Positions 3,124 to 64,000 of a stretch of DNA of 64,000 bases are shown here, piece after piece. The stretch's first letter is position 1; every line of letters begins with the position of its first letter. This stretch comes from Thermoanaerobaculia bacterium (lineage in GTDB: Bacteria > Acidobacteriota > Thermoanaerobaculia > Gp7-AA8). Made by a program: the position numbers and the translations under genes. The stretch is taken from positions 116,409 through 180,408 of the forward strand of contig DASVEE010000015.1 in NCBI GenBank assembly GCA_036380735.1, read 5' to 3'. The notes under the pieces were generated by a model, which was not told the origin of the DNA, ran no database searches, and saw only the letters and a program-made list of their open reading frames with translations.

Positions 3124-3203
3124 AGAGAGACAGTTGTTGGTTTTCGGTTTTCGGTTGTCGGTGGGAGACCAAAAACCGAAAACCGACAACCGAAAACCAA
3201 ACC
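3124..3203. repeat. Hairpin element with arms made of heptad units (CGGTTTT/CGGTTGT)
   Basis: The arm ttgttggttttcggttttcggttgtcggtgg, a gaga loop, and the arm ccaaaaaccgaaaaccgacaaccgaaaacc form a perfect-looking inverted repeat. It lies between the kinase stop (3116) and the next start (3235). Related copies sit at 12377 and 62345. Confidence 0.65.
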
Positions 3204-7354: not shown

Positions 7355-9508
7355 ATGATGCGAATGTCACGCCCGGTCAGATGGCCACGCCTCACACTCA
7401 CCGTCGCCATCGCGATTTTTGTGGTCGCTTATGCGTTCGCGATCTACATTTTCGTGCTCAATCAGCGCCTTTCTCGCGAGCTGGTCGACCACAACTGGCG
7501 CGAGCCGACCATCCTCGTTTCCAACGCCGGCAAGAAGCCGCGTGAGGTCGCGCGGCTCTACGGAACCGACTGGCGCACCACGCCGCCGATCCGGCTCGGC
7601 GACCTGCCGCCGCACGTCGGCAACGCGTTTCTCGCCGCCGAAGACGTCCGTTTCCGCCGCCATCCCGGCGTCGATCCCATCGGCATCACGCGCGCCGCGG
7701 TGCGCAACGTCCGCGCCGGCGGCATCACCCAGGGCGGCAGCACCATCAACCAGCAGATCATCAAGCAGCGCTACTTCTCGAACGAGCGTACGTGGCGCCG
7801 CAAGATCGTCGAGATGATCCTCGCCGTCATCCTCGACGCGCGCCTCTCCAAGGACGACATCCTCGAGCTCTACCTCAACGACGTCTACCTCGGGCACCAC
7901 GAAGGCAGCCCGGTCCTCGGCGTCGACGAAGCCGCGCGCCTCTACTTCGACAAGTCGCCGCGCGAGCTCCGCTCCGACGAAGCGGCGATCCTCGCCGCCA
8001 TCGTGCGCGCCCCCAATCGCGACAACCCCCGCAAGCGCCCCGACCTCGTACGCGCCCGCCGCGACGGCATCCTCAAGGTCATGCGCGACCGCAAGTGGAT
8101 CAGCGAATCGCAGTACCGCGACGGCGCCGCCCGCCCGGTCGACCTCAATCGCGGACGCCTGCCGCAGACGCCCTTCCCCTACTACCTCCGCGCCTTGCGC
8201 GCCGACCTGGTGAAGGAGATCGGCATCGGACCGATCGTTCAGGGCGGTCTCACGATCGTCTGCGAGCTCGATGAAGAGGCGCAGCGCGTCGCCGAGCGCG
8301 TCGCCAGACGCACACCGGGTTCGCTCGAAGGGCGCTACCGCTGGCTGCGCGAGCAGGCCGCGCAGGACCCGCTGCAGGTCGCGATCCTCTCCGTCGATCC
8401 GCGTACCGGCGGCGTACGCGCCCTCGTCGGCGGCTCCGACTTCAAGCGCTCCCCCTTCGACCGCACCAAGAACATGCGGCGCCAGCCCGGCTCCGCGTTC
8501 AAGACGTTCGCCTTCCTCGCCGCCATCACCTCGAAGCGCGCGACCAACGCCACGCTGCTGCTCGATGCGCCGGTGACGATCGAAGTCGGCAGCGAGGAGT
8601 GGACGCCGCAGAACTACGACGAGCGCTTCCGCGGCCGCGTGACGGTACGTGAGGCGTTCGAGAAGTCGCTGAACGTCCCCACGGTGCGGCTGACGCAGCA
8701 GATCGGCATGAACCGCGTCGTGCGCACGGCGAACAAGTTCGAGTTCGACGAGAAGTTCACCTCCATCCCCGCCCTGCCGCTCGGCGTGAGCGAGGTCTCG
8801 ATGCGCGAGCTCACCGCCGCCTACACCGTCTTCCCCAACCTCGGCGAGCGCGTCGAGCCGTTCCTGCTGACCGAGGTGCGCAATCGCCGCGGGAAGACGC
8901 TGTACAAGCACGAGGTCGAGCGGAAGCGCATCGTCGACGCCGACTCCGCCTTCATCGTCCACACGCTGCTGCGCGGCGTCGTCCAGCGCGGCACCGCCTC
9001 CCGCCTCCGCCGCTACGGCCTCGGCTACGTCGCCGGCAAGACCGGCACGACCAACGACTACCGCGACGCCTGGTTCGTCGGCTACACGCCCGACATGGTC
9101 ACGACCGTGTGGGTCGGCTTCGACAAAGGGGCGCCGCTGCGCCTCTCCTCGGGCGAGGCCGCCATTCCGGTGTGGGGTGAGTACATGCGCGAGCTGCCGC
9201 ACCTCCAGCGCTACCCCGACTCACCGTCGGGCGTGACGTGGCGGCAGATCGATCCCGAGACCGGGATGCTGTGGCGCGAAGGCTGCCCCGGCCCGCGGCG
9301 CGAGGTGTTCCTCGACGGCACCGCACCGACGCGCCACTGCCCCCGCGGCATCCTCGGCAACGTCGTCCGCCGCGTCTTCTTCGACGAAGAGAACTTCGAC
9401 GAGCCGCCGGCCATCACCCTGGACAAGTTCCGGCGCTGGGCCAACGAAGCGGACCGCAACCGCCAGCAGGTGGAAGGGATCCTGGACCGGCTGCGCCGGA
9501 TGTTCTAG
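7355..9508 (+). CDS. Class A penicillin-binding protein (bifunctional transglycosylase/transpeptidase)
   Basis: N-terminal TM. GT51 motifs FLAAEDVRFRRH, GGSTINQQ, RKIVE. Transpeptidase motifs SAFK (SxxK) and KTGTT. Long C-terminal extension. Confidence 0.85.
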   Translation: MMRMSRPVRWPRLTLTVAIAIFVVAYAFAIYIFVLNQRLSRELVDHNWREPTILVSNAGKKPREVARLYGTDWRTTPPIRLGDLPPHVGNAFLAAEDVRFRRHPGVDPIGITRAAVRNVRAGGITQGGSTINQQIIKQRYFSNERTWRRKIVEMILAVILDARLSKDDILELYLNDVYLGHHEGSPVLGVDEAARLYFDKSPRELRSDEAAILAAIVRAPNRDNPRKRPDLVRARRDGILKVMRDRKWISESQYRDGAARPVDLNRGRLPQTPFPYYLRALRADLVKEIGIGPIVQGGLTIVCELDEEAQRVAERVARRTPGSLEGRYRWLREQAAQDPLQVAILSVDPRTGGVRALVGGSDFKRSPFDRTKNMRRQPGSAFKTFAFLAAITSKRATNATLLLDAPVTIEVGSEEWTPQNYDERFRGRVTVREAFEKSLNVPTVRLTQQIGMNRVVRTANKFEFDEKFTSIPALPLGVSEVSMRELTAAYTVFPNLGERVEPFLLTEVRNRRGKTLYKHEVERKRIVDADSAFIVHTLLRGVVQRGTASRLRRYGLGYVAGKTGTTNDYRDAWFVGYTPDMVTTVWVGFDKGAPLRLSSGEAAIPVWGEYMRELPHLQRYPDSPSGVTWRQIDPETGMLWREGCPGPRREVFLDGTAPTRHCPRGILGNVVRRVFFDEENFDEPPAITLDKFRRWANEADRNRQQVEGILDRLRRMF

Positions 9509-9596
9509 GGCGGGAACGATGGGACCCATAGGACGGATGGGACGAATGGGACAGGTGGGCTGCCGTCCTGTCTGGCCTATCAGTCCTGGTCGTCCT
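9508..9596. repeat. 9-bp-unit inverted-repeat element
   Basis: gggaacgatgggacccataggacggatgggacgaatgggac, then a short core, then a degenerate inverted array. It starts directly after the PBP stop TAG. Confidence 0.6.
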
Positions 9597-9638
9597 GTCG
9601 GCGGTTCCGCGCGACTACGCTGCTGTTGAAAACGACTG

Positions 9639-9828
9639 CAACATTGACTCGAAAGACAATGTTGCTGACTTGAAAGACAGCAACATTGACTCGAAAGACA
9701 ATGTTGCTGACTCGAAAGACAACAACATTGACTCGAAAGACAATGTTGCTGACTCGAAAGACAACAACGTTGACTCGAAAGACAATGTTGCTGACTCGAA
9801 AGACAGCAACATTGACTCGAAAGACCGC
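9639..9828. repeat. Tandem repeat with a 48-bp period made of two 24-bp subunits, about 4 copies, AT-richer than the surroundings
   Basis: caacattgactcgaaagacaatgttgctgactcgaaagacaac is repeated. It lies in the convergent gap between the PBP and the protease gene. In the + frame it reads (DSKDNxx)n from a TTG start (ORF 9670-9936); coding status is unresolved. Confidence 0.7.
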
Positions 9829-9919
9829 GTCGCTGATCCGCGCAACGGCAGTCTGACCCGCAAAGCAATCGAGCCGGCTTTCGCCGGCTCGATGCAGTCG
9901 TTGAGGCTGGATTCGAGGT

Positions 9920-12109
9920 CTAGAACGACACGCTGACGTTGTTCGAGCACGTCGTCGTGCCCGCGTTGCAGACGCGGTAGGTGAACGTGCCCCGCACTTT
10001 CCCGAGCTGGTCGGTGTGCGCGCCGTCGTTCGCCGTGGTCACGACTCTCATGTTGTTGCGGTAGATGTCGACCTGCGTCGAGGTCGCGCCGCTCCAGGTG
10101 AGGTCCGCGTAGGCCACGTTCTTCGCCTTCCGGGCGGTCGCGCTGAGGCTGATGCCGCTGGCGGAGGTGATCGTCACGTTGATCGAGGCCGATCCCGACA
10201 GCGAGCCGCTGTCCGTCGCCGTCGCCGTCACCGTGTGCGTGCCGGCGGCCAGGCCGCTCGTGGTGATCGAGGAGCCGGTGCCGAGGGCGCCGCTGAGGCT
10301 CGACGTCCAGTTGATGGAGGAGGCGAGCGAGCCGTCCTGCGTGTCGGTGGCGGTGCCGCTGAACGTCACCGCGGTGCCCTGCACGAACGAGGCGCCCGGC
10401 GCCGGGGCCGTGATGGCCACGACGGGGGCGGTGTTCACCGGGCCGCCGGCGCAGGTCGCCGGGATCGTGAACGACTCCGTGATCGAGACGCCGGAGCAGA
10501 AGAAGATGTTGCAGCTCTCGGCGCCGTTGGCGCCTTCGCCGATGCCGAACTGCGCGAACGCGGTCCAGATCAGGCAGTCCTGAGCCGTGGTCGGCGACGC
10601 CGCGAGGAGACCGTCGCGCATGTCCTCGTAGGCCGGGCGCGACGGGGTGAAGTTCATGCCGTCGATGACCACGTCGAAGAGGGCGTCCTGGGTGTAGCCG
10701 GCGCCTTCCCACAGCGACAGGAGCTTCCACATCGTCGCCGCGTAGATCTCGCCATCCGAGTGGACGCTGCCGCCGGTGACGTCGGCGTAGGTGTTCGGGT
10801 AGTTCGTGTAGGGGAAGCGGCGGATGCCTTTCGCGTTGTTGTAGGCGTACTCGCCGACCGTGTCCTGCCGGTTGACGTAGATGGCGAGGACGTCGCTCAT
10901 CCCTTCGCCGATGGCGCCGGCGAGCGGACCGCTCATGCCGCCGATCATGCGCTGCGTCAGGCCGTGCCCGTACTCGTGCCAGACGATGTCGGAGTCGAGA
11001 TCGCCGTCACGTCCGGGCGTGGAAGCGTTCCAGAGGTACATCTGCATGCGCGGGCGCGAGCCGTCGGTCGGTGTCGCGAAGTTCGCGTTGTTCGTGCCGC
11101 CGCCGTCCTGCGCTTCCGCGTTGACCGGGTCGTTGCCGAGGCCGCCCTTGCCGAAGTTGTTCGCCTGGAAGTTGCCCGCCGCCTCGTTGAAGCCGTGGCG
11201 GTACAGTTTGTCGTGGATGACGTTGTTCAGATAGAAGAGGTTCGCCACGGCGGCCTGCTGGTTCGTGGCCGTCGTCGGCGCCTGCGTCAGGTCGACGGTG
11301 TACTCGAAGTTCTGCGTCGCCGAGACCGGGCGTCCGTTCGTATCGGCGCCATTGTTGTTGTCGCGGTCGAGGTACGCATCGACGTTGTTGCCGATCGTCG
11401 TGTTCGTGGAGACCCAGCCGCCCGGCGACTCCGCGTTGCCGGTGCCGGGGCCGCTCACGACCGTCTGCGTCGAGTTGCCCGGATGGTCGGGGAAGATCTT
11501 GTAGGTGTCGTCCGCCGTGCGCAGCTCGCGGTAGACCACGTTCCCTTCGTTGTCGACGAGCGAGTGCCAGAGGATGTTCGTCTCTTCTTCCCACGTCTGG
11601 ACGAGGTAGCCCTCGACGAGGGTGCCGTCGGCGAGCGGGATCACGACCATCGTCGCGGTCGGCTCTTCGTGCCAGAACGACGCCGGCTGCTCGGCGCTGT
11701 CGTAGAGCTGCGAGACGCCGGCGCGGATCGAGTCCGTGTACGTGATCGTCGTCGGCTCCACGTCGCCCGCCGGCACCGTGTTCTCGATCATGCTGAGGAT
11801 GCGGCCGTGGCTGTCGACGGTCGCGCGGACGTAGGTGCCGTACACCGGCTTCCCGGCGATCCGCTGTTCCATCCGGATGTGGCGTCCGTGCTCCGCCGTC
11901 GTCACCAGCGTCTGTCCCTTGTTGCCGAGGAACGAGCGGACGATTTCGGAGCGCGATTTGTTCGAGGGACCGGTCAGGGGCTTGAGGTCTTGGTTGCGAT
12001 GGACCCGCGCACCTTTGGCGCTGAAATCGATCGTCTTTTTACCGGGGACCGCCAGGAGAGGGGAGGAAACGAGAAGCAGGGCACCGCACAAGGACAACAA
12101 CTTCGACAT
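9920..12109 (-). CDS. Secreted M36 (fungalysin-like) zinc metalloprotease with propeptide and C-terminal Ig-like domain
   Basis: RBS ggagg. Signal peptide MSKLLSLCGALLLVSSPLLA. HEYGHGLTQRM (HExxH). GEGMSDVLA third-ligand motif typical of M36. C-terminal Thr/Ser-rich beta domain. Confidence 0.8.
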   Translation of the reverse strand: MSKLLSLCGALLLVSSPLLAVPGKKTIDFSAKGARVHRNQDLKPLTGPSNKSRSEIVRSFLGNKGQTLVTTAEHGRHIRMEQRIAGKPVYGTYVRATVDSHGRILSMIENTVPAGDVEPTTITYTDSIRAGVSQLYDSAEQPASFWHEEPTATMVVIPLADGTLVEGYLVQTWEEETNILWHSLVDNEGNVVYRELRTADDTYKIFPDHPGNSTQTVVSGPGTGNAESPGGWVSTNTTIGNNVDAYLDRDNNNGADTNGRPVSATQNFEYTVDLTQAPTTATNQQAAVANLFYLNNVIHDKLYRHGFNEAAGNFQANNFGKGGLGNDPVNAEAQDGGGTNNANFATPTDGSRPRMQMYLWNASTPGRDGDLDSDIVWHEYGHGLTQRMIGGMSGPLAGAIGEGMSDVLAIYVNRQDTVGEYAYNNAKGIRRFPYTNYPNTYADVTGGSVHSDGEIYAATMWKLLSLWEGAGYTQDALFDVVIDGMNFTPSRPAYEDMRDGLLAASPTTAQDCLIWTAFAQFGIGEGANGAESCNIFFCSGVSITESFTIPATCAGGPVNTAPVVAITAPAPGASFVQGTAVTFSGTATDTQDGSLASSINWTSSLSGALGTGSSITTSGLAAGTHTVTATATDSGSLSGSASINVTITSASGISLSATARKAKNVAYADLTWSGATSTQVDIYRNNMRVVTTANDGAHTDQLGKVRGTFTYRVCNAGTTTCSNNVSVSF

Positions 12110-12376: not shown

Positions 12377-12455
12377 AGTCGGTTTTCGGTTGTCGGTTGT
12401 CGGTTTTCGGTGCTGCGCCCGGCGCAGCGGAGCTACCGAAAACCGCCAACCGAAA
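12377..12455. repeat. Heptad-unit hairpin element (CGGTTTT/CGGTTGT)n
   Basis: Arms gagtcggttttcggttgtcggttgtcggttttcggtgc and gctaccgaaaaccgccaaccgaaaaccgaaaaccgactc, with loop tgcgcccggcgcagcggag. Confidence 0.65.
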
Positions 12456-12501
12456 ACCGAAAACCGACTCGCGATCACGGACAACGTCACCACTCACCAC
12501 T

Positions 12502-41727: not shown

Positions 41728-44688
41728 TCAGTGGTCGTGCTGAGCCCCCTCGGGACCGGCGACCACGATGTGGAACGTCAGGGACGGGCCCTTCCCGCCG
41801 CGGTCGTCGACGCCGACGGCCCAGACCATGTAGTGGGCAGGCGGCAGGCTCGGCAGGGTGACCTCGTACGGGGCGGTGGTGTCGACGGCGACGAGCTGCG
41901 CCGGGGAGGCGAAGGAGTCGTGCTCCCGGACCCAGAACTCCACGCGGTCCACCCGTCCTCCGCGGTCGGTCGCGGCGGCCCTGAAGACGATCGGTGCGCC
42001 CGCCGCGAAGGTGGCGAGATCGCGCGGCGACTGCAGGTCGACGGCGGGGAGGGTGTTCTCGATGACGCTGATGGTCATGTCGGTCCGCGCCGTCTGGCTG
42101 CTGTTGAGGGCGAGCGCCCGCACGCGGCGCGGTCCGGTACCGGCGGCGGTCCAGTTGAAGGAGAACGGCGCCATGTCGGACGTCGCCACGAGCTTGCCGT
42201 CGATGAAGACCTGCACGCCCTTGATCGTGCCGTCCGGGTCGATGGCGTCGACGTGGAACGGGACGGTGTCTCCCGGCTGGAAGAGCGCGCCGTTCGGCGG
42301 CGACGTGATGACGACGGTGGGCGGTGTGTCGCGGACCGCATGGTTCGCCGTCAGCGCGAGGTCGAAGGTGGCGTCGTCGCCTTTGGCGTCCTGGTGGAGC
42401 TCGACCGCGATGACGTTGCGGCCGTCGCGCACGAGCTCGAGCGGCACCGGCACCGGGAAGAACGCTTCCTCCTCCGCACCGTTGACGCTGCCTTCGGCGT
42501 AGGCGTCGTCGCCTTCACCCTTCAGGTTCACGCGATGCAGCTCGGAGCCGTTGAGATACACGACCGCGCCGTCGTCGCGCTTGAGGTGCACCAGCATCTC
42601 GCGGTAGATCGAGCGGTCGGCGACGTCGAAGCCGTGGCGGTAGTAGGTGGTGGTGCGGCGGCCGACGGTCGTTTCCGGGTCGTCGCCGTAGCCGAACTCC
42701 GCGCGGCCGGTCCGCCACTTCTCGTCGTCGTAGCCGGGCTGCTGCCAGCCGTCTGCGGCGGCTTCGGTGTCGAGATAACGCCACCCCTCGTCGTTCTCCG
42801 GAATGAGGACGAGCCTGCGGAAGTCGACCTCGAAGCGCTGGCCGCCGACGAGCTCATTCGCATCATCGGGCGTGCCGTACTGGATCAGGTCGAACTTCGC
42901 CACGCCGTTGGTGGGGAGGTAGCCTTTGTTCAGCGCGAAGCCGACGGTCACGGGGAACGCCTCTTCGGGGGCCAGGCGGATGCCGGTGAGGGCGGCCTTG
43001 GCTCCGGTGATCTGGAGGCGGCCGCGCTCCGCGTCGACGGTGCGCACGTTCTCACCGTCGCCGCCGTCTTCCTGCCAGCGGTCGTAAAGCTCGCGCGGCA
43101 GGTCGACGTAGACGCCGCCGGTCTCCAGGTAGTCGCGCTCCTCGCGGCCCTCATAGACCTGGGCCAGTTCGAGACGCGTCACCGCCGTGAAGCGGGCCGG
43201 ATTGCGGACGAGGATCGGCGCCACGCGCTGCGCGCCGGTGAAGTTGTCGACGATCTGGATGTTCTTCCAGACGATGTTGTTGTTGTTCTTCGTGTTCGTG
43301 TTGACGCTCGCCACTTCCGGCGTGGTGATGCCGGGCTCGATGCGCGCGAGCAGGCAGAAATGCGATTGGTCGCCGCCGAAGCAGGAGAAGTTCGCCGGAT
43401 CGGGCGGATACCAGGGGATCTGCAGCACGACCGCCTGTCCCGGCTGAAGCACCGGCACGGTGAGCAGCGCGTTGTCGTAGATCGGCGGCGAGACCACGGA
43501 AGTGTGCGTCGGCGTCTTGGAGATGATGTAGCCGCCGGCGATCGTCCACGGGATGATCGGCGTGCCGGTGCCGTTCCACGGACCCATCGCCGTCGTGATG
43601 TTGATGTTGCCCGTGAGGGCGCCGTACGTCAGCGTCGGATCGAGCCGCCCGAGCTGGGCGGTGTTGCGCTGCCAGCGCGACCAGAGGCGGTCGGCGTTCG
43701 CATGCAGCATGAAGAAGAACGGATCTTCCGCGGCCGTCGGGATCGACCCCATGTTACCGCCGATGTGCACGTGCGAGCCGTCGTGCGGATCGCTCTCGAC
43801 GAAGGCGAAGTTCGAGTAGGGCGTGCGGTTCAGCACCGTGGTGTCGCTGGTGCCGGGCAGGCCGCTGCCGCCGACGTTGCGCGAGACGCTCGGCGGCGCC
43901 AGCACGTTGAACGGCGCGCCGATCGCGCCGTTGGAGTTCCCCATGAACGACGACGTCCAGTAGGTGCCGGCCGGCGGGGTGCTCTGCCAGTCCCAGTAAA
44001 GCAGCTTCAGGGTGGGCTCGTGCTCCTGCAGCAGCGCCTCGTAGCGGTTGATGTACTCGCGGTGCCACGGGAGAAACGCCGGTGAGCCGTGGCGGTTCGA
44101 CGGGCCGGACTGGTGCACGTGATCCTGCTTGTCGAAGTAGCTGACGCCGTCGCTGAAGGTGAACGGCGCCACGGTGCCGACGGCGATGATCGCGTCGCGG
44201 TAGGCGTTGCGCTCGGCCACCGTCGCGCTGACGGCGTTCTTGCGCGGCTTGGTGATCTCCATGCCGTACAGCTTCTGCGGGCCGCAGGTGGTGGCCTTGT
44301 AGTCGACCCACTGCGTGGGCCAGTTCAGCCCGGTCGAGGCCTTCGCCCAGTAGAGCTTGAGCGTGTCGTTGCCGCTCGACGCCACGTTGCCGCGGTTCCG
44401 CACGCGCACGTAGACGTAGTTCGGGACGCTGTATTTCGGGTCGCGGTATTCGGCGCTCTGGTGCGTTCCGGGCGCCCAGGGCGGCGTGTTGGCGGGGAAG
44501 GGGTATGGCTGGTAGGCCGGGTCGGGCGCGGTGCGGACCCAGATGTCCTCCGTCACCCACATCGCCCCGGTATCGGGATTCGGCTCCACCCCCGTATCGG
44601 CCGGGGTGTCCTTCATGTAGAGATCGGCCTGTGCGAAGGCGAGGAGCGGGAACAACAGGAGTGCCGCAAGGACTGCGAACCGCTTCAT
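41728..44688 (-). CDS. Large secreted tyrosinase (type-3 copper) with extra N-terminal, lectin/jelly-roll-like and Ig-like domains (986 aa)
   Basis: RBS ggagg. Signal peptide MKRFAVLAALLLFPLLAFA. CuA site H..HQSGPSNRHGSPAFLPWHREY. CuB site HVHIGGNMG..DPFFFMLHANADRLWSRWQ. C-terminal Big-like domains. Ends HDH. Confidence 0.8.
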   Translation of the reverse strand: MKRFAVLAALLLFPLLAFAQADLYMKDTPADTGVEPNPDTGAMWVTEDIWVRTAPDPAYQPYPFPANTPPWAPGTHQSAEYRDPKYSVPNYVYVRVRNRGNVASSGNDTLKLYWAKASTGLNWPTQWVDYKATTCGPQKLYGMEITKPRKNAVSATVAERNAYRDAIIAVGTVAPFTFSDGVSYFDKQDHVHQSGPSNRHGSPAFLPWHREYINRYEALLQEHEPTLKLLYWDWQSTPPAGTYWTSSFMGNSNGAIGAPFNVLAPPSVSRNVGGSGLPGTSDTTVLNRTPYSNFAFVESDPHDGSHVHIGGNMGSIPTAAEDPFFFMLHANADRLWSRWQRNTAQLGRLDPTLTYGALTGNINITTAMGPWNGTGTPIIPWTIAGGYIISKTPTHTSVVSPPIYDNALLTVPVLQPGQAVVLQIPWYPPDPANFSCFGGDQSHFCLLARIEPGITTPEVASVNTNTKNNNNIVWKNIQIVDNFTGAQRVAPILVRNPARFTAVTRLELAQVYEGREERDYLETGGVYVDLPRELYDRWQEDGGDGENVRTVDAERGRLQITGAKAALTGIRLAPEEAFPVTVGFALNKGYLPTNGVAKFDLIQYGTPDDANELVGGQRFEVDFRRLVLIPENDEGWRYLDTEAAADGWQQPGYDDEKWRTGRAEFGYGDDPETTVGRRTTTYYRHGFDVADRSIYREMLVHLKRDDGAVVYLNGSELHRVNLKGEGDDAYAEGSVNGAEEEAFFPVPVPLELVRDGRNVIAVELHQDAKGDDATFDLALTANHAVRDTPPTVVITSPPNGALFQPGDTVPFHVDAIDPDGTIKGVQVFIDGKLVATSDMAPFSFNWTAAGTGPRRVRALALNSSQTARTDMTISVIENTLPAVDLQSPRDLATFAAGAPIVFRAAATDRGGRVDRVEFWVREHDSFASPAQLVAVDTTAPYEVTLPSLPPAHYMVWAVGVDDRGGKGPSLTFHIVVAGPEGAQHDH

Positions 44689-44859
44689 GATTCTTCCTCC
44701 AATCGAGGAGGTAGAGCCGCCCTGGATGCAAATCCCTACCGGTAGCGAAAGCAATGACACTAACGGCCGGGGTTGGTGCGGCAGTGCTCAGAAGGAAAGG
44801 GGCCCCAGGGTCTGACCCCTGAGCCTTCACTGGTTCACGGCCTGCCAGACGTTCTGCCG

Positions 44860-54536: not shown

Positions 54537-57524
54537 TCAGTGATGGTGAACGTGGCCGCTGGTGGCCGAGGCCGGGGCGTCCACGGTGAAATGTACGGTG
54601 AGGGACGGGCTCTTCTCTCCCCCCTCATCGACGGCGACCGCCCACAGCATGAAGTGACCGGCCTCGAGAGTCACGTTCGCCTCGAACGGAGCGGTGGTAT
54701 CGACGGCCACGAGCCGGTCCGGGGAGAGGAAGGAGTCGTGCTCCTTGACCCAGAACTCGACACGCGCCACCCGGCCTCCGCGATCCGACGCCGTGGCGCG
54801 CGCGAGGATCGGCGCACCCACCGGGAAGGAGACGCGGTCCTGTGGCGAGAGCAGCTCGACCACCGGAGGCACGTTGTTGACGACGGTGATGGTCCGCTCC
54901 GTCAGCGCGGTGGCGCTGGAGTTGATGGCCACGGCGCGGATGCGGTGCGGCCCCGCACCCATGGCCGTCCAGTTGAACGAGAACGGCGCCATGTCGGACG
55001 TGGCGACCAGCTTCCCGTCGACGAAGACGTTCACCCCCTTGATCGTGCCGTCGGGATCGATGGCGTCGACGCTGACCGGCACGGCCTCACCCGGCTGGAA
55101 CAACGCGCCGTCGGCGGGCCCGACGAGCAGGACGTTCGGCGGCGTGTCGCGGACCGCGTGGTTCGCCGTCAGCGCGAGGTCGAACGTGGCGTCGTCGGCC
55201 TTCTGATCCTGATGCAGCTCGACGGCGACGACGTTACGGCCGTCGACGATCAGCTCCAGCGGTACAGGCACAGGGAAGAACGCTTCTTCCTCCGCGCCGT
55301 CGACCGAGGTGTTGGCGTACGTGGCGTCGCCGCCGCCGTCGAGGTTCACGCGATGCACTTCCTTGCCGTTGATGTAGACGATGGCGCCGTCGTCGCGCTT
55401 GAGGTGCAGCAGCAGCTCGCGGTAGATGGTGCGGTCGGCCACGTCGAACGCGCGACGGTAGTACGTGGTCGTACGCCGGCCGACGGTCGTTTCGGGATCG
55501 TCCTCGTAGCCGAACTCGGCGCGGCCCGTGCGCCACTTCGCGTCGTCGTAGTCCGGCTGCTGCCAGCCGTCGCCCGCGGCCTGGTCATCGAGATAGCGCC
55601 ACTTCTCGTCGTTGGCCGGGACCAGCACGAGCTTCGTGAAGTCGACCTCGAAGCGCTGGCCACCGACGACCTCGTTCTCATCGTCGGGCGTGCCGATCTG
55701 CACGAGGTCGAAGCGCGGCACGTAGCCGGCGCGCGGCACGTAGTTGCGATTGAGCTGGAACGTGACGTCGACGTTGACGGCTTCCTCGGGCTCGAGACGA
55801 AGGCCGGCGAGGTAGGCGTCGGGGGAGGTGACGAGGAGGCGTCCGAGGCGCGGATCGAGCGGGCGCACTCCCTCACCGCGACCACCCTCGGCCATCCAGC
55901 GCTCGTAGAGCTGCGGCGCCAGGTCGAGGTAGACGTTCCCGGCTTCGCCGTAATAGTGCAGTGCCTCTTCATTCGCGGCGCGGAAGTGCAGACGCGTCGT
56001 CGCGATCGCGAGCGCCGGATTGCGCAGGATGACCGGCGAGACGCGCAGCGCGCCGGGGAACTGGTCGACGACCGAGATGTTCTTCCAGACGATGTTGTTG
56101 TTCGCCTTGGTGTTGGCGTTGACGCTCGTGTTCTCCAGCGTGGTCATGCCGAACGGCGACACGGTGGAGGTCTCGATGCGCGCCAGCAGGCAGAAGTGCG
56201 ACTGGTCGCCGCCGAAGCAGGAGAAGTCGGCCGGCTTCGGCGGGAACCACGGCACCTGGATGACCACCGCCTGTCCGGGGAGCAGCGGCGGCACGGTCAG
56301 CGGCGCCGTGTCGTAAATCGGAGGAGAGACGACGGAGTGATGCGTGGGTCCCTTGGAGACGATGTAGCCGCCGGCGGTCGTCCACGGGATGATCGGCGTG
56401 CCGGTACCGTTCCACGGACCCATCATCGTCGTGATGTTGACGTTGGTCGTCAGCGCGCCGTAGGTCTGCGTCGGATCGAGGCGCAGGACCTGCGTGCTGT
56501 TGCGCTGCCAGCGCGCCCAGAGGCGGTCGGCGTTGCCGTGCAGCATGAAGAAGAAGGGATCCTCCGCCGCGGTCCCGATCGACCCCATGTTGCCGCCGAT
56601 GTGGGTGTGCGAGCCGTTGTGCGGATTGCCTTCGATGAGGCCGAAGTTCGAGTACGGCGTGCGGTTCAGCACCGTGGTGTCGCTGGTGCCGGGAAGCGCG
56701 CTGCCGCCGACGTTGCGCGCAACCGTCGGTCCGCCCAGCGCGTTGAACGGCGCGCCGATATTGGGTCCGGTGGCGTTCCCCATGAACGTGCTGGTCCAGT
56801 AGGTCAATGCCGGCGGCGTGGTCTGCCAATCCCAGTAGAGCAGCTTGAGGGTCGGCTCGTACTCCTGCAGCAGCGCTTCATAGCGGTTGAGGTACTCGCG
56901 GTGCCACGGCAGGAAGGCGGGGGAGCCGTGCCGGTTGCCGGGGCCGGCCTCGTGCACGCGGTCCTGCTTGTGCCAGTACGAGACACCGTCGCTGAACGCG
57001 AAGCTCGCGGTGCCGGCGGCGAGGATCGCGTCGCGGTAGGTGTTCCGCTCCGTCGACGTCGCGGTCGCGGCGTTCTTGCGCGGCTTGGTGATCTCCATGC
57101 CGTACAGCTTCAGCGGACCGCAGTTGTTCGCCTTGTAGTCCACCCACTGCGACGGCCAGTTCAGGCCCGTCGACGCCTTCGCCCAATACACGCGCAGGCG
57201 CTCGTTGCCGGTCGACGCGACATTGCCGCGATTGCGCACGCGGATGTAGACGTAGTTCGGCGTGCTGTACTTCGGGTCGCGGTACTCGGGACTCTGGTGC
57301 GCCCCCGGCGTCCACGGCGGAGCCGTGGCGGTGAACGGATACGGCTGATACGCCGGATCGGGAGCCGTGCGGACCCAGATGTCTTCCGTCACCCACATCG
57401 GCCCGTTATCGGGATTCGGCTCCACGCCGGTATCGGCCGGAGTGTCTTTCATGAACAAATCCGCCTGTCCGAACGCGACGAGCGGGAACAACAGCACTGC
57501 AAGCAGTACAGCAAGTCTCTTCAT
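54537..57524 (-). CDS. Large secreted tyrosinase paralog (995 aa), same architecture as 41728-44688
   Basis: RBS aggagg. Signal peptide MKRLAVLLAVLLFPLVAFG. CuA site ..GSPAFLPWHREY. CuB site HTHIGGNMG..DPFFFMLHGNADRLWARWQ. Shares long, largely collinear amino-acid similarity and matching DNA stretches with the first copy. Ends HVHHH. Confidence 0.8.
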   Translation of the reverse strand: MKRLAVLLAVLLFPLVAFGQADLFMKDTPADTGVEPNPDNGPMWVTEDIWVRTAPDPAYQPYPFTATAPPWTPGAHQSPEYRDPKYSTPNYVYIRVRNRGNVASTGNERLRVYWAKASTGLNWPSQWVDYKANNCGPLKLYGMEITKPRKNAATATSTERNTYRDAILAAGTASFAFSDGVSYWHKQDRVHEAGPGNRHGSPAFLPWHREYLNRYEALLQEYEPTLKLLYWDWQTTPPALTYWTSTFMGNATGPNIGAPFNALGGPTVARNVGGSALPGTSDTTVLNRTPYSNFGLIEGNPHNGSHTHIGGNMGSIGTAAEDPFFFMLHGNADRLWARWQRNSTQVLRLDPTQTYGALTTNVNITTMMGPWNGTGTPIIPWTTAGGYIVSKGPTHHSVVSPPIYDTAPLTVPPLLPGQAVVIQVPWFPPKPADFSCFGGDQSHFCLLARIETSTVSPFGMTTLENTSVNANTKANNNIVWKNISVVDQFPGALRVSPVILRNPALAIATTRLHFRAANEEALHYYGEAGNVYLDLAPQLYERWMAEGGRGEGVRPLDPRLGRLLVTSPDAYLAGLRLEPEEAVNVDVTFQLNRNYVPRAGYVPRFDLVQIGTPDDENEVVGGQRFEVDFTKLVLVPANDEKWRYLDDQAAGDGWQQPDYDDAKWRTGRAEFGYEDDPETTVGRRTTTYYRRAFDVADRTIYRELLLHLKRDDGAIVYINGKEVHRVNLDGGGDATYANTSVDGAEEEAFFPVPVPLELIVDGRNVVAVELHQDQKADDATFDLALTANHAVRDTPPNVLLVGPADGALFQPGEAVPVSVDAIDPDGTIKGVNVFVDGKLVATSDMAPFSFNWTAMGAGPHRIRAVAINSSATALTERTITVVNNVPPVVELLSPQDRVSFPVGAPILARATASDRGGRVARVEFWVKEHDSFLSPDRLVAVDTTAPFEANVTLEAGHFMLWAVAVDEGGEKSPSLTVHFTVDAPASATSGHVHHH

Positions 57525-57639
57525 GGATCCTCCTGGGATAAGCAGGGAGGAGAGGTGGTAAAGATGGAAATCCCTACCCATCGTGAAAGGAATGTGACCG
57601 ACGGGCGCGACTGCAGGAACAGCGATGTTCCTGGAAACA

Positions 57640-57742
57640 TGGGACCTATGGGACCGAAGGCAGAAGGCAGAGGCAGAACCCAAAGCAGAAGCCGCCCGGA
57701 CGTTCCTCTTTCTGCCTTGTGCCTTCTGCCTTCTGCCTTCGT
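57640..57742. repeat. Hairpin with arms of heptad units (GAAGGCA)3 / (TGCCTTC)4, preceded by a short 9-bp-unit stub
   Basis: gggacctatgggacc gaaggcagaaggcagaggcagaa..ttctgccttgtgccttctgccttctgccttc. It lies in the divergent intergenic region between the tyrosinase and MMPL gene starts. Confidence 0.65.
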
Positions 57743-60409: not shown

Positions 60410-62293
60410 TTCCACCCACGGCCTGGCCTGTTTCACGATCAAGTCACCGCGCTTATCGATCTTGAATTCGATGTCCATGGCGAAGCCGGATTTCGCCGTC
60501 TTGCCGTAGACGCGCAGGAAGTGGGTCTGGATGCGCTCCATGGCGGAGGTCAGGGCGGCGATCTGTTCTTTCGTCATCACCGGCTGGCCCTCCTTCGTCA
60601 ATGAAGAATGGCGGATGTACTGGGTCTCGTACTCGCCCTGCTCGCCGATCGCGGAGATGAGGAACTCGTCGGGCGTGGCGCCTCCCTCCGGGTTGGTGAC
60701 CAGTTCCTCGCCGACCTGCACGTTGACGTAGAAGCCGCGCCACTCGGGGTCGTACGGGTTCTTCGTCACGGCCACGCCGTTGGCGCCTTCGTCGTCGAAG
60801 TTGGGATGCACCAGGACGCCCATCGCGGTGGCGAAATGGTCGATGCGGTAGAACTCGCGCTCCTCGAAAGCGCGGAAGTTCCAGAGGCTGGCCCACACCT
60901 GCTTGACCGTCTTTTCCAGCTTCCCCTCATCGGGCCGATGCGTGAAGGAGTCGTACAGCCCGGCGCCGCTGAAGCCCTCGAGGTCTTCGTTGTTCGTGCT
61001 CGAGCGGCAGCGCAGCGGCGTCTGGGCGGGAAACAGCTCCTGCAGCGCGCGGAGCTGCTTCGCCAGCTCGTCGGGCACGCTCTCCTTCTTGATCCTCTTG
61101 CGGAAGTCGTCGAGCGCCTTCTCGCGCGCGGCCGGATCGGCGGCGAACGACTTCTTCGCCAGCATCTTCTTCGCGCGGTCGTAGAGCCCCGTGCGGCGCA
61201 TGAAGACGTCGTAGAACGCGAGCGGCACCGCGTAGCCGTCCGGCACCGTGCCGGGGGGCAGGATCTTGCGCAGCTCCGCGACGTTCGCCGCCTTGGCGCC
61301 GACCGAGGGGACGTCGGCGTGTCCGAGGCCGTCGAGGTCCCGGATCGTCCGGCGGGTGAGGTCGCGCGGCGGCGTCTGCGCCTTCGGCGGCCGCACCTTC
61401 TCCAGGAACGCATCCGCCTCGGCCTGCGTCGCTTCGGTGAGCTGGAAGTTCTCCGCGGTGACGACGTAGTGCACCACTTTGCCGAGCAGCGGCTGGATGC
61501 GCGCGTCGGTCGACGCGTTCTTCACGTACGCGTTCGGCGTGTCGTTCTGCTTCGCCTTGAGGTTGACGTGCGACAGCGGCGTCTGCGGCATCTCGGTGAT
61601 CACGCCGGCGACGTGACTGAGGTCGTTCGGTAGCGTCTTGAAGAGGACGACGTCGCGGACCGTCGGTGGCCGCTCGCCGGGACGCGCGCCTTCGATGATG
61701 CGCAGTACGCCGTAGCCCTCGCCGAGGTTGAGGGGGCTGTAGGTCACGTTGCCGAACAGCTCTCGCGTATCGATGAGGCGGACGCCGAGCTCCACGAGCT
61801 TCGTCTTCTCTTTCTCCGCGAGCGCCTGCTGCGTGTCGCCGGCCGGGTGATACGCGAGCTGCTTCGCCGCGAACGGCATCGCCGCGCTCACTGCCTTGAA
61901 GGCGAGGGAGACATGCGTCGCATTCACCGGATCGGTCGGCCAGAACTCGAGCGCGTAGAGGCCCTTCGCGCCGTCGGAGGCGACGTACTCGTCGTGGGAG
62001 ATGAGCGACCCCGCGAGGTTCTTGCGCGCATCGCGAAAGTACGTCTCCTGATTGAAGCCGCTGTTGTCGTCCGGGAAGCCGAGCGCGTCGCGCGCGAAAA
62101 AGAAGTGGTACTCGATGTTTTTGGTGTTGATGAAGTAGAGCAGCGGCGAGGCGGTGTCGACGCCGGTCATCAGGAACTTCACTTCCTCGACGCCGAGGGC
62201 GCCGGGGACGTCATCGCGTCGGGCGAGATGCTCGAAGGCAGCACGGTCGGCGACCGCCGTCGCGCCAGCGGAGAGGGGAAGATTGATGGCCAT
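60407..62293 (-). CDS. PEP-utilizing enzyme family protein (mobile His domain followed by PPDK_N/ATP-grasp PEP-pyruvate-binding domain)
   Basis: Mobile-domain-like LFKTLPNDLSHVAGVITEMPQTPLSHVNLKAK. ATP-grasp region SVGAKAANVAEL..SSTNNEDLEGFSGAGLYDS..VQVGEELVTNPEGG..IEFKIDKRGDLIVKQARPW. Confidence 0.65.
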   Translation of the reverse strand: MAINLPLSAGATAVADRAAFEHLARRDDVPGALGVEEVKFLMTGVDTASPLLYFINTKNIEYHFFFARDALGFPDDNSGFNQETYFRDARKNLAGSLISHDEYVASDGAKGLYALEFWPTDPVNATHVSLAFKAVSAAMPFAAKQLAYHPAGDTQQALAEKEKTKLVELGVRLIDTRELFGNVTYSPLNLGEGYGVLRIIEGARPGERPPTVRDVVLFKTLPNDLSHVAGVITEMPQTPLSHVNLKAKQNDTPNAYVKNASTDARIQPLLGKVVHYVVTAENFQLTEATQAEADAFLEKVRPPKAQTPPRDLTRRTIRDLDGLGHADVPSVGAKAANVAELRKILPPGTVPDGYAVPLAFYDVFMRRTGLYDRAKKMLAKKSFAADPAAREKALDDFRKRIKKESVPDELAKQLRALQELFPAQTPLRCRSSTNNEDLEGFSGAGLYDSFTHRPDEGKLEKTVKQVWASLWNFRAFEEREFYRIDHFATAMGVLVHPNFDDEGANGVAVTKNPYDPEWRGFYVNVQVGEELVTNPEGGATPDEFLISAIGEQGEYETQYIRHSSLTKEGQPVMTKEQIAALTSAMERIQTHFLRVYGKTAKSGFAMDIEFKIDKRGDLIVKQARPWVE

Positions 62294-62344
62294 GTGCCGT
62301 CAATATGGAGCGGCGGCGGCGGAAGTGCCACTCCACACCGCCGC

Positions 62345-62445
62345 CCGGTTGTCGGTTTCTGGTTTTCGGTTGTCGGTGCTGCGCTTCGCGATGATCGCCG
62401 TGGAGCGCAAGCACCGAAAACCGAAAACCGACAACCGAAAACCGG
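62345..62445. repeat. Heptad-unit hairpin element (CGGTTTT/CGGTTGT)n
   Basis: Arms ccggttgtcggtttctggttttcggttgtcggtgc and gcaccgaaaaccgaaaaccgacaaccgaaaaccgg, with a ~30-nt loop. Confidence 0.65.
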
Positions 62446-62517
62446 CCGTGCGGGCCGCGGGGCGGTGAAACGCTTCCGCGCTTTCCATCACTACTCCCTC
62501 GTGCAAGGGAGGCAGCC

Positions 62518-62859
62518 ATCGATCGCCGGGTAAAACGCGCTCTGGAGTTTCTGGAGTCTTCGTGGAGGGAGCCTGTCGCCGTGCCGGACCTCGCGGCACG
62601 CGTCGGATTGTCTCCGTCGCGGCTCGAGCATCTTTTCCGCGAGCATACGCGCATCACGATTCGCGACTATCTCCGCGACCGCCGGCTGCGCCATGCCGCG
62701 GCGATGCTCGTGGAGACGGACGAGCGCATTTCGCAGATCTGCTACTCCGCCGGCTTCGGCGATCCGTCGAACTTCAACCACGCCTTCAAGAAGACGTTCG
62801 GGGTGAGTCCAAAACAGTACCGCGACCAGGAACGCGCGGCAGAAAGCACCAACGAATAG
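62518..62859 (+). pseudogene. AraC-family regulator remnant: C-terminal HTH domain only; N-terminal domain replaced by the hairpin element
   Basis: The in-frame translation reads IDRRVKRALEFLESSWREPVAVPDLAARVGLSPSRLEHLF..AFKKTFGVSPKQYR, a typical AraC HTH_18. There is no in-frame ATG/GTG/TTG between the upstream stop (62392) and the GTG at 62581. The hairpin element occupies 62345-62445. Confidence 0.5.
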
Positions 62860-62945
62860 CAGGAACTACCAATTACGAACGGGTGACCGCGCGCGAGAAT
62901 CGTCGTTCGCTCCATCCATAACGAAATCACACGCGGAGGTGGTGA

Positions 62946-63377
62946 ATGACGGTGATCAAAACCGCGGTCGACGTGCAGGTCAGCGACGGCCCGCGGATCA
63001 ATTTCAAGAATCAGCTCGAGGTCGACGCCTACGACCGGATCGACGTCTCGGTCCCCAGCGACAACACGCCGGTGAACGCCGAGGTGCAGCCGGGCAGCAC
63101 CGTCACGTTTCTGCTGATCCGCTCCAGCGTGTCCAACGACCTGGTGACGCTGAAGAACGGGACGGCGCAGATCAGCCTGGCCAGCCCGATCGTGCTGGCC
63201 GGCGGCGGCGTCGGGCTGCTCGCCGCTCCGGCGAAGACGCTGACGTTCACGAACGACTCCGGCACGGACGCGAAGATCACGGTGCTCGTCGGCCGCGACG
63301 CGACGCCTCCGCCGCAGCCTCCGCAACCGCCCCCGCCGCCGCCCCCGCCGCAGGACGGAGAAGAAGACAACCCTTAG
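62946..63377 (+). CDS. Hypothetical beta-rich protein with a poly-Pro/Gln acidic tail; first gene of the putative contractile-injection-system locus
   Basis: RBS ggagg. No known tube/sheath motifs. C-terminal PPPQPPQPPPPPPPPQDGEEDNP. It sits 60 bp upstream of the sheath gene. Confidence 0.5.
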   Translation: MTVIKTAVDVQVSDGPRINFKNQLEVDAYDRIDVSVPSDNTPVNAEVQPGSTVTFLLIRSSVSNDLVTLKNGTAQISLASPIVLAGGGVGLLAAPAKTLTFTNDSGTDAKITVLVGRDATPPPQPPQPPPPPPPPQDGEEDNP

Positions 63378-63436
63378 GACGCCAGAGGAGCCAGCAAGAT
63401 CCGCTGCAGCCGTAAGGAGAGAGGAGAACTCGCATC

Positions 63437-64000
63437 ATGCCCACTCCGTTGACCTATCCAGGCGTCTACATCGAAGAAGTGCCCAGCGGCGTACGCACGA
63501 TCACCGGCGTCGCCACATCCATCACCGCGTTCATCGGCCGCGCGCTCCGCGGCCCGGTCGACAAGCCGGTGCGCATCCAGAGCTACGCCGATTTCGAGCG
63601 CGCCTTCGGCGGCCTCTGGGAAGAGAGCACGATGAGCTACGCCGTGCAGCAGTACTTTCTGAACGACGGCGTCGACGCCGTCATCGCGCGCGTCCATCGC
63701 GGCGGCACGGTCTCGGTCATCGAGCTCGACACCGCGGTGCCGGCGGAGAAAGTGGTTCTCGAATCGGCGAATCCGGGACACTGGGGGCGCGACCTGCGTG
63801 CTCGCGTCGACCACACGACGAAAGAAGACCCGGACGACACCACGCTCTTCAACCTGATCATCGAGGAGATGGACGGCAACGTCGTCGCGCGCACCGAGAC
63901 GTTCCGCAACGTCTCGGCGCTACCGGCCTCGCCGCGCTTCCTCATCGAGGTGCTGAAGCAGCAGTCGCAGCTCGTCCGCGCCACCGCCGTCCCGGGGCAA
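63437..64000 (+). CDS. Contractile tail sheath protein (phage-tail-like / eCIS sheath), 3' partial
   Basis: RBS aaggagagagg. N-terminus MPTPLTYPGVYIEEVPSGVRTITGVATSITAFIGRALRGP is the hallmark sheath N-terminal motif (PGVYIEE..I.GV.TS..AFIG). The ORF runs off the window end. Confidence 0.8.
   Translation, partial: MPTPLTYPGVYIEEVPSGVRTITGVATSITAFIGRALRGPVDKPVRIQSYADFERAFGGLWEESTMSYAVQQYFLNDGVDAVIARVHRGGTVSVIELDTAVPAEKVVLESANPGHWGRDLRARVDHTTKEDPDDTTLFNLIIEEMDGNVVARTETFRNVSALPASPRFLIEVLKQQSQLVRATAVPGQ

Follow-up and report, generated by a model that had tools for sequence, protein, structure and literature searches.

Results

Genes at the 3' end of the window

The window, a stretch of 64,000 nucleotides, comes from a soil MAG of an uncultured lineage of Thermoanaerobaculia (Acidobacteriota). 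Between 62.5 and 64.0 kb it carries, in this order, an AraC-type gene, a gene for a 143-aa protein and a contractile sheath gene (Table 1), and good Shine-Dalgarno sequences precede both the 143-codon ORF and the sheath ORF. The 20 kb inspected upstream (41.7–62.3 kb) encode an MMPL transporter, tyrosinase/Big_7 proteins, histidine kinases, a GAF protein, a Kup transporter and a PPDK_N-like protein. These are chromosomal housekeeping and sensor genes, and phage genes, including those for capsid, portal and terminase, are absent from this flank, as the initial annotation had stated in describing a 5' side free of prophage context.

Table 1. Features at the 3' end of the window (window coordinates)
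Feature	Position	Strand	Evidence
Hairpin with 39-nt arms	62342..62380 and 62410..62448		
Short HTH-only AraC-family regulator gene	62518..62859	+	Pfam; homologues at the same place in relatives
Sheath-linked accessory gene, 143 aa, jelly-roll domain and tail	62946..63377	+	ORF; fold model
Contractile sheath gene (Cis2/Afp2-like), first 188 codons; runs past the window end	63437..64000	+	Pfam, PHROGs and PDB on the extended ORF

The sheath very probably belongs with contractile injection systems

The sheath ORF starts with an ATG and opens with MPTPLTYPGVYIEEVPSGVRTITGVATSITAFIG. The 188 residues inside the window match no Pfam family. We extended the ORF with a 2.5-kb Logan contig (L001) that is 100% identical to window positions 62418–64000, and it stays open to 491 aa. 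The 491-aa protein matches Phage_sheath_1 (4.7e-10) and Phage_sheath_1C (4.7e-9), each passing its curated cut-off, and the PHROGs family phrog_23, 'tail sheath' (3.3e-56). Among PDB entries the best match is Cis2 of Streptomyces coelicolor (8BKY, 6.4e-69), aligned over sheath residues 3–490, followed by Cis2 of Halogeometricum (9EZM, 1.5e-68), with weaker matches to Pvc2 (6e-45), Afp3 (1e-41), T4 gp18 (1e-6) and a pyocin sheath (1.4e-4). The Pfam, phrog_23 and 8BKY matches bear out the earlier reading of this ORF as a contractile tail sheath.

Canonical T6SSs have a two-protein TssB/TssC sheath, the ClpV ATPase and a TssJLM membrane complex. The present sheath is a single chain of the phage type (Phage_sheath_1 plus Phage_sheath_1C), not TssB/TssC, and no T6SS family occurs among the genes read in a 69%-identical relative (L003/L082), which rules out a canonical T6SS.

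The closest genomic relatives of the sheath, which belong to contractile injection system (CIS) loci, are 53–76% identical to it, and the best match in 50,697 phage records is 30% identical.

Conserved gene order downstream of the sheath

All 80 of the closest genomic relatives of the sheath, from bacteria and archaea, encode a sheath together with a tube protein (PF06841, 4e-48), with the tube gene directly 3' of the sheath gene and the tubes 75–95% identical to one another. Among the relatives with enough retrieved DNA, nearly all continue after the tube with a T4_baseplate/DUF6760 protein, a variable gene, a Pvc16_N cap (formerly DUF4255; 1e-39 in L003) and a WHD+AAA ATPase. Loci of the clade continue with a CIS_tube-like protein, VgrG/Pvc8 (Phage_GPD), Phage_base_V, GPW_gp25 and large baseplate proteins, the latter of about 830 and about 1,110 aa in L082–L085, of which L083–L085 are Logan contigs with clade VgrG genes from samples other than the source. 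The four nearest relatives retain the conserved genes throughout the DNA retrieved for them, and in L003/L082 the full set is seen through gp25. The clear exception is a Nitrosospira locus (L022), which has sheath and tube but, within 10 kb, no further gene of the conserved set.

The large protein encoded after the ATPase in the clade has 1,100–1,640 aa and no Pfam match, and no eCIS_core domain was detected in it in the closest relatives. More distant relatives (L023 and L040) encode eCIS_core (formerly DUF4157) proteins at this place (E about 1e-32). Capsid, portal and terminase genes were seen neither up- nor downstream in L003/L082 or L083–L085. No tail-fibre family was recognised in the genes read in L082–L085, and neither an Afp13-like fibre nor an Afp14-like tape measure was identified in the relatives' genes read.

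Public records for the source genome list the 143-aa protein as HEX7151237.1 (locus tag VF618_07095) and place it on a contig of 216,896 bp. HEX7151243.1 (P0049), a 720-aa WHD+AAA ATPase of the Afp15 type, is likewise recorded on a 216,896-bp contig and lies exactly six protein accessions later, adjacency being read here from accession order rather than DNA; this matches the position predicted by the conserved gene order. Beyond sheath residue 491 we infer the genes of the source genome, the ATPase alone being placed, by accession order and recorded contig, and the accession spacing points to a tube gene. A VgrG homologue of the source genome is not among the 120 matches listed, and a 44-mer taken from the end of L001 had no exact match among metagenome contigs.

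The 143-aa protein is a sheath-linked jelly-roll protein

The 143-aa protein ends in ...ATPPPQPPQPPPPPPPPQDGEEDNP. Its jelly-roll domain spans residues 1 to ~120 and closes with a conserved VGRDATP, and the proline-rich acidic tail that follows is a lineage-specific extra. The AF2 model is confident (pLDDT 89), and its matches are jelly-roll, cupin and lectin folds, with no tube protein among them. No signal peptide or membrane helix is visible in the sequence. Searches against Pfam and NCBIfam, tube families included, returned no match, PDB sequences searched with a profile yielded nothing beyond chance matches (E 0.03–0.06, to designed Ig proteins and to a GntR regulator), PHROGs gave a single marginal match (phrog_30506, E 0.0015), and tblastn against phages and plasmids found nothing. 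The structure prediction that the initial annotation had called for yields a confident jelly-roll, in keeping with its remark that the protein matches no tube motif. A tube identity is ruled out by the fold, by the lack of any PF06841 or PF19266 match and by the real tube gene 3' of the sheath in relatives.

Clustering at 50% identity divides the family, which occurs in both bacteria and archaea, into about 1,200 clusters; the family has neither a Pfam model nor a solved relative. In 78 loci picked by the 143-aa protein alone, independently of the sheath, the sheath gene lies directly downstream on the same strand in 76 (97%). The small gene is present in one of two sister sheath lineages and absent from the other, which suggests that the jelly-roll protein is dispensable. 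Comparison of ORF lengths gave no obvious sign that its presence goes with a particular sheath length or with an additional sheath domain, and a weak-match profile search for fused or hidden copies found none except a divergent copy in L010.

The AraC-type gene is short in relatives as well

The mechanically called ORF of the AraC-type gene covers 62581..62859 (92 aa). The conserved frame runs from an ATC at 62518 (IDRRVKRALEFLE...), the putative start codon, and encodes about 113 aa; a Shine-Dalgarno-like AAGGGAGG ends 5 nt ahead of this ATC, and upstream of 62581, back to the stop at 62392, this frame contains no ATG, GTG or TTG. The protein matches HTH_18 (9.9e-29) and HTH_AraC (7.3e-17). 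In the four closest relatives (L002, L003/L082, L004 and L005), HTH-only homologues of 117–126 aa, 54–57% identical, immediately precede the small gene and the sheath. Because this short form has the same position in all four, the earlier claim that the hairpin truncates the AraC gene has to be dropped: the hairpin is real, and truncation by it is ruled out by short homologues in relatives, none of the four closest of which contains the heptamer repeat of the element. A promoter and terminator scan of 62250–63600 found no sigma-70-like promoter and otherwise only artefacts of the hairpin element. The AraC-type protein is probably a clade-specific transcriptional regulator of the operon.

Discussion

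Identity of the locus

Our data indicate that the genes at 62.5–64.0 kb are very probably the 5' end of a chromosomal CIS cluster of the Afp/PVC-like superfamily. We infer that the cluster continues beyond the window because the gene order is conserved in relatives and the ATPase lies six accessions downstream. Past the sheath, the expected order would be tube, T4_baseplate/DUF6760 protein, a variable proline-rich gene, Pvc16-type cap and AAA+ ATPase, and past the ATPase a small protein (~75 aa), a very large protein without Pfam match that may be the cargo, a tube-initiator, a VgrG/Pvc8 spike, gp25 and baseplate. From established knowledge of CIS, the products would assemble in the cytoplasm as a phage-tail-like particle with a baseplate and spike, an inner tube, and a contractile sheath whose cap is the Pvc16-like protein, and sheath contraction would push tube, spike and cargo through a membrane.

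The sheath falls in Pfam phage sheath families and phrog_23, and the DNA past L001 is known here from relatives and accession order, so that one could picture an ordinary prophage with a contractile tail, its tail module beginning here and its head and packaging genes lying past the window end. This is very improbable and close to refuted. The best phage sheath is 30% identical, against 53–76% for relatives that carry Pvc16_N and an AAA+ ATPase; the more distant relatives carry eCIS_core, and none has capsid, portal or terminase genes. On the source contig itself the hallmark ATPase is found at +6, and the 20 kb upstream are chromosomal. The initial annotation had preferred a CIS to a myophage and had proposed to look downstream for the genes that would tell them apart; read in relatives, these comprise tube, cap, AAA+ ATPase, spike, gp25 and baseplate, and the preference is supported.

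A sheath locus that stands alone, away from any head genes, would also suit an R-type tailocin, a pyocin-like bacteriocin. Pvc16_N corresponds to Afp16, and it is carried, with the AAA+ ATPase, by the relatives of the locus. One published survey required at least one homologue of Afp12, 13, 14 or 16 for its eCIS set, so as to keep R-type pyocins out (PMC8213781). The pyocin sheath is very distant (1.4e-4, against 6e-69 for CIS sheaths), and no lysis cassette was seen in L003/L082. We regard a tailocin as extremely improbable.

The Nitrosospira locus, with only sheath and tube within 10 kb, demonstrates that degenerate loci exist, and the VgrG of the source genome is missing from the 120 matches listed; both would fit a decayed or partial remnant, a sheath with or without a tube and lacking a functional baseplate. 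Against this stand three intact window genes with ribosome-binding sites, a sheath ORF uninterrupted over at least 491 codons, an ATPase of the expected kind placed six genes downstream, and the conserved genes of the four nearest relatives, with the full set through gp25 in L003/L082. A remnant is improbable in our view, and a CIS cluster remains the reading that we adopt.

A possible role for the jelly-roll protein

Most likely, though we hold this tentatively, the 143-aa protein serves as a structural accessory that the system can do without and that is produced along with sheath and tube, for example a decoration or adaptor on the sheath surface. Possibly it is an undescribed component of lineage-II CIS, an outer sheath decoration or lectin-like adaptor that would alter the behaviour or binding of the particle. 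A role outside the particle, as cargo or effector or as an assembly chaperone, seems rather unlikely: family members have a uniform size (~125–135 aa) and are 34–55% identical across bacterial and archaeal phyla, and CIS toxins have been described as highly variable (PMC8213781). The 143-aa protein also has no DUF4157/eCIS_core domain, disordered N-terminal region or coiled coil, and its linkage to the sheath gene is tight, at 97% of independently picked loci.

Mode of action

Three modes were considered: release from the cell (eCIS), firing inside the producer as in Streptomyces (cytoplasmic) and firing from the membrane (T6SS-like). According to the literature, sequence does not allow a reliable prediction of which mode a system uses (PMC12998442). 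The nearest characterised sheaths are those of the cytoplasmic CIS of Streptomyces and the genus Calidithermus and of the membrane-bound archaeal CIS (PMC10066040, PMC12998442, PMC11566945). Because these closest characterised sheaths work without release and no tail-fibre family was seen in the genes read, we lean slightly towards a non-released mode over an extracellular eCIS.

Significance

CIS clusters of the Afp/PVC superfamily have already been catalogued in more than a thousand genomes, and one further CIS in a soil Thermoanaerobaculia MAG is no surprise. The locus does give a clear-cut case in an uncultured Acidobacteriota lineage, the nearest characterised relatives being non-extracellular systems, and it cautions that such loci should not be named 'eCIS' from sequence alone. 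The small gene ahead of the sheath marks a large, sheath-linked and uncharacterised family that is invisible to Pfam-based surveys, and none of the solved CIS structures in the PDB copy searched matches it. If the jelly-roll protein is in the particle, it would be a missing piece of lineage-II CIS models and a possible engineering handle. Regulators of eCIS reported so far include GerE/LuxR types, and the HTH-only AraC-type gene is a candidate regulator unlike these.

Comparison with known systems

With myophage tails (Bacillus phage BCD7, T4 gp18) the locus shares sheath fold families and the principle of contraction, but identity reaches 30% at best, no head or packaging genes were seen here, and relatives contain the pair of cap and ATPase. 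Afp of Serratia and PVC of Photorhabdus have the same core parts, namely sheath, gp19-type tube, VgrG/Pvc8, gp25, baseplate, Pvc16/Afp16 cap and Afp15 ATPase, read here mostly in relatives. However, a tube gene (Afp1) opens their clusters, which encode three paralogous sheaths, whereas the present locus has one sheath behind a non-tube jelly-roll gene, and the similarity to Pvc2 and Afp3 is limited to the C-terminal half of the sheath.

The membrane-bound CIS of Halogeometricum borinquense ('archaeal T6SS', clade IIa) supplies the second-best solved sheath, 9EZM, and has its tube gene directly 3' of cis2, as do the relatives here, but the best aligned stretch covers query residues 211–490 only. 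A six-helix membrane anchor (Hbor_38620-like) correlates with the T6SS mode (PMC11566945).

A further known group is the cytoplasmic clade of Roseiflexus, Calidithermus and Deinococcus (lineage IId). The sheath of Calidithermus roseus (L063) is 57% identical to that of the window and is followed in the same order by the tube and the T4_baseplate-like gene, although the small upstream gene is absent; Chloroflexota relatives of the sheath are 60–62% identical. The species in which cytoplasmic localisation was shown is C. chliarophilus (PMC12998442), distinct from C. roseus and from the clade of the window.

CIS-Sc of S. coelicolor is a cytoplasmic CIS of lineage IId with the sheath operon sco4253-sco4251 (PMC10066040). 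It differs from the present system in several respects: the host of the window is a Gram-negative acidobacterium, sheath identity is about 35%, as estimated on a Streptomyces anthocyanicus plasmid sheath taken as a presumed proxy for Cis2, and the candidate cargo is the large protein without Pfam match rather than transmembrane effectors such as Sco4256-4258. Yet of the solved structures its Cis2 matches the sheath best, with the nearly identical N-terminal motif PGVY(I/V)EEV.SG.R.I.GV.TS..AF(I/V)G, the tube follows the sheath directly as in sco4253-sco4251 (read here in relatives), and the two systems share a Cis15-type ATPase and, as far as the cap genes of the relatives show, a Cis16-type cap, with no conventional tail fibre or tape measure seen in the genes read.

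Results and discussion

The two ORFs claimed by the initial annotation at the 3' edge of the window are both present, each preceded by a good ribosome-binding sequence (see the table below). On their own, the 188 sheath residues inside the window matched no Pfam family, and an exact-protein look-up retrieved a public contig of 2,492 bp (L001), 100% identical to positions 62418-64000, which extends the sheath ORF to 491 codons. The 491-aa protein matches Phage_sheath_1 (4.7e-10) and Phage_sheath_1C (4.7e-9), both passing the curated cut-offs, and PHROG 23 'tail sheath' (3.3e-56); the N-terminus that had been called diagnostic thus belongs to a sheath. It aligns, residue by residue, with Cis2 of Streptomyces coelicolor, a solved sheath (8BKY; 6.4e-69, residues 3-490).

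Scanning one genome per species yielded 80 loci with sheaths 53-76% identical to the window sheath, in Acidobacteriota, Chloroflexota, Beta- and Gammaproteobacteria, Cyanobacteria, Planctomycetota, Nitrospirota, Actinomycetota, Myxococcota, Deinococcota and several archaea. The gene order 3' of the sheath is near-invariant among them: tube, T4_baseplate/DUF6760, variable, cap and ATPase. The locus can be followed further 3' on a JGI contig (L082) that is identical to L003, a relative with 69% identity, and three more clade contigs (L083-L085) show the same order and add proteins of ~830 aa, ~1,110 aa (Beta-prop_PLL) and 680-890 aa. After the ATPase, the closest relatives encode a conserved ~75-aa protein and a 1,100-1,640-aa protein without Pfam match, a possible cargo or tape-measure-like protein; in more distant relatives its place is occupied by eCIS_core (formerly DUF4157) proteins (~1e-32).

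Features of the window and of related loci, with their positions
Feature	Locus	Position	Strand	Remarks
143-aa ORF	Window	62946..63377	+	Ends in ...ATPPPQPPQPPPPPPPPQDGEEDNP
Sheath ORF	Window	ATG 63437 to window end	+	188 codons inside; opens with MPTPLTYPGVYIEEVPSGVRTITGVATSITAFIG
AraC-type frame	Window	62395-62581		Open and conserved 5' of first canonical start codon
Likely AraC-type start	Window	ATC 62518		5 nt past Shine-Dalgarno-like AAGGGAGG
Hairpin arms, 39 nt	Window	62342-62380 and 62410-62448
Hairpin element copies	Window	62342-62448; 3173-3198; 12381-12465
Tyrosinase/Big_7 paralogues	Window	41728-44760 and 54537-57683	both -	1,010 and 1,048 aa
Tube gene	Relatives	1st after sheath		PF06841, 4.3e-48
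T4_baseplate + DUF6760 protein	Relatives	2nd after sheath		Domain matches
Variable gene	Relatives	3rd after sheath		Often proline-rich
Pvc16_N cap	Relatives	4th after sheath		1e-39; TIG domain too in nearest relatives
Winged-helix + AAA+ ATPase	Relatives	5th after sheath		1.5e-31
Genes after ATPase	L082	In order		75-aa protein; 1,560-aa protein without Pfam match; HEAT-like 190-aa; CIS_tube-like 232-aa; Phage_tail_X-like 92-aa; Phage_GPD/VgrG; Phage_base_V; GPW_gp25; 811-aa protein
Very large post-ATPase protein	L082; L083; L085; L003	12265-16947; 2-3367; 1600-6510; 17294-21475
Sheath and tube	L022	10001-12125		Nitrosospira MAG
Jelly-roll gene followed by 536-aa protein	L138, L139	4001-6464		Near-identical contigs
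Alternative small protein	L030, L060, L066, L077, L079	~9500-9960		100-400 bp 5' of sheath

The source genome can be linked to this gene order. The 143-aa protein is identical to HEX7151237.1 ('hypothetical protein VF618_07095 [Thermoanaerobaculia bacterium]'), which belongs to a MAG contig 216,896 bp long; the G+C content of the window is 66.8%. A search with the L003 ATPase recovered a WHD+AAA protein of Thermoanaerobaculia bacterium (P0049, HEX7151243.1), whose contig is likewise 216,896 bp and whose accession lies six past HEX7151237.1. Six is the offset predicted by the conserved order (small, sheath, tube, T4_baseplate-like, variable, cap, ATPase). This indirect placement at +6, by accession order and not by DNA, would be difficult to account for if the cluster did not go on in the source genome as it does in the relatives.

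The tube, cap, ATPase and spike/baseplate families in relatives, together with this ATPase at +6, support a contractile injection system (CIS). The finding is real and its reading as an eCIS-type machine essentially right, the locus belonging to an already known kind of system and being cut by the window edge. Capsid, portal and terminase families, which would point to an ordinary prophage, were found nowhere in the relatives' DNA examined, where tail-module genes were found instead. Cap, ATPase and eCIS_core serve as markers that tell such systems apart from phages and pyocins (PMC8213781); relatives carry the first two, and distant relatives the third. In a set of 50,697 phage records, the top sheath match, that of Bacillus phage BCD7, is only 30% identical, and the 20 kb 5' of the locus encode an MMPL transporter, two tyrosinase/Big_7 proteins, histidine kinases, a GAF protein, Kup and a PPDK_N-like protein. 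This makes a prophage tail very unlikely. The tyrosinase/Big_7 proteins are large paralogues with a tyrosinase central domain and Big_7 bacterial Ig domains.

Two other contractile systems were considered and rejected: an R-type tailocin, the pyocin sheath match being only 1.4e-4, and a canonical T6SS, the window sheath being neither TssB nor TssC. A slight probability attaches to a decayed CIS remnant. One relative (L022) keeps sheath and tube, with the other conserved CIS genes absent within 10 kb 3', and may be a decayed cluster; against such decay here, the window ORFs are intact and the source genome has the ATPase at +6.

A small jelly-roll protein linked to the sheath gene

The 143-aa protein is one of a family of stand-alone proteins, ~125-135 aa long, with a conserved (I/V)LVGRDATP at the end and invariant positions that include A-Y-D near residue 28, Q-P-G near 48 and G-G near 86. 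When 1.84 billion representative proteins were searched with a profile, 1,184 clusters came up at E<=1e-3, 911 of them at E<=1e-10; Pfam, NCBIfam and PDB sequences contained no relative. Apart from the window protein, only its two closest homologues have the proline-rich acidic tail, a lineage-specific appendage. Fold matches of the predicted model (m5424cb2bcdaa) include viral jelly rolls, and among the BFVD predicted viral structures it resembles small uncharacterised tailed-phage proteins (E down to 7.7e-7), including those of the jumbo myophages phiRSL1, BcepSaruman and AR9 (TM 0.5-0.63). Neither a tube protein nor any solved CIS component was matched among solved structures, in agreement with the earlier remark that the protein matches no tube motif.

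A family member lies 5' of the sheath on the same strand in 34 of the 78 sheath-selected relatives with upstream sequence. Its end mostly falls 16-216 bp ahead of the annotated start of the sheath gene; mechanical ORF calls in four loci overlap, by 41-56 bp. A divergent copy is present in L010. On the sheath tree the gene is clustered yet patchy, sister lineages differing in its presence, and this distribution points to a dispensable accessory with repeated losses. In the reverse test, 80 metagenome loci were picked by the small protein alone, and a sheath starts within 600 bp 3' on the same strand in 76 of the 78 with at least 200 bp of downstream sequence (median gap 31 bp). In the two exceptions (L138 and L139), a 536-aa protein without Pfam match follows ~400 bp after the jelly-roll gene, with no recognisable sheath downstream.

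We tentatively propose that the 143-aa protein is a structural accessory of the particle, a role favoured over a toxin because its linkage to the sheath gene is near-exclusive, its size is uniform and members from two domains of life share 34-55% identity; the toxins of these systems vary greatly (PMC8213781). Some probability stays with a cargo or chaperone role, and in Streptomyces lividans the gene directly 5' of the sheath does encode a cargo (PMC13277306). The sheath-linked jelly-roll family is the sole part of the locus with some novelty. Relatives without the jelly-roll gene often have another small protein (~95-160 aa) 5' of the sheath. A motif resembling '...L.YL..HP.A.DT.EGI..WW...' is common to these proteins, which look like winged-helix proteins and may be another regulator or accessory.

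The upstream AraC-type gene and the hairpin element

The initial annotation described an AraC-family gene truncated by a hairpin. The hairpin exists (predicted RNA fold -92 kcal/mol, z -7.6); truncation did not hold up, as the four nearest relatives all have HTH-only AraC homologues (117-126 aa, 54-57% identity) directly 5' of the small gene. The hairpin is a palindrome of AACCGA(A/C) heptamer repeats that occurs at three or more places in the window (6 matches versus 0 expected). The only related locus in which the heptamer repeat was found is L001, the window copy. The element looks like a genome-specific REP/MITE-like repeat. The AraC frame has no ATG, GTG or TTG before 62581, so that the gene likely starts at a non-canonical ATC, where the conserved N-terminus (IDRRVKRALEFLE...) begins; the L003/L082 gene likewise has no canonical start. 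The gene is conserved in the acidobacterial clade only, and its product is plausibly an operon regulator.

Mode of action and comparison with known systems

The proposal of a stand-alone eCIS holds for the type of machine, whereas 'extracellular' is not established, the nearest solved sheaths being cytoplasmic or membrane-bound. These are the Cis2 proteins of S. coelicolor, whose CIS mediates cell death from a cytoplasmic location (PMC10066040), and of Halogeometricum borinquense, whose CIS sits on the cytoplasmic membrane and has T6SS-like action (PMC11566945). The sheath of Calidithermus roseus (L063) is 57% identical to the window sheath, and another Calidithermus species has a free cytoplasmic CIS of lineage IId (PMC12998442). 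Afp and PVC sheaths match the window sheath in the C-terminal half alone (1e-41 to 6e-45), and no tail-fibre family was recognised in the relatives' genes read. On these grounds we lean slightly towards a particle that would not be released.
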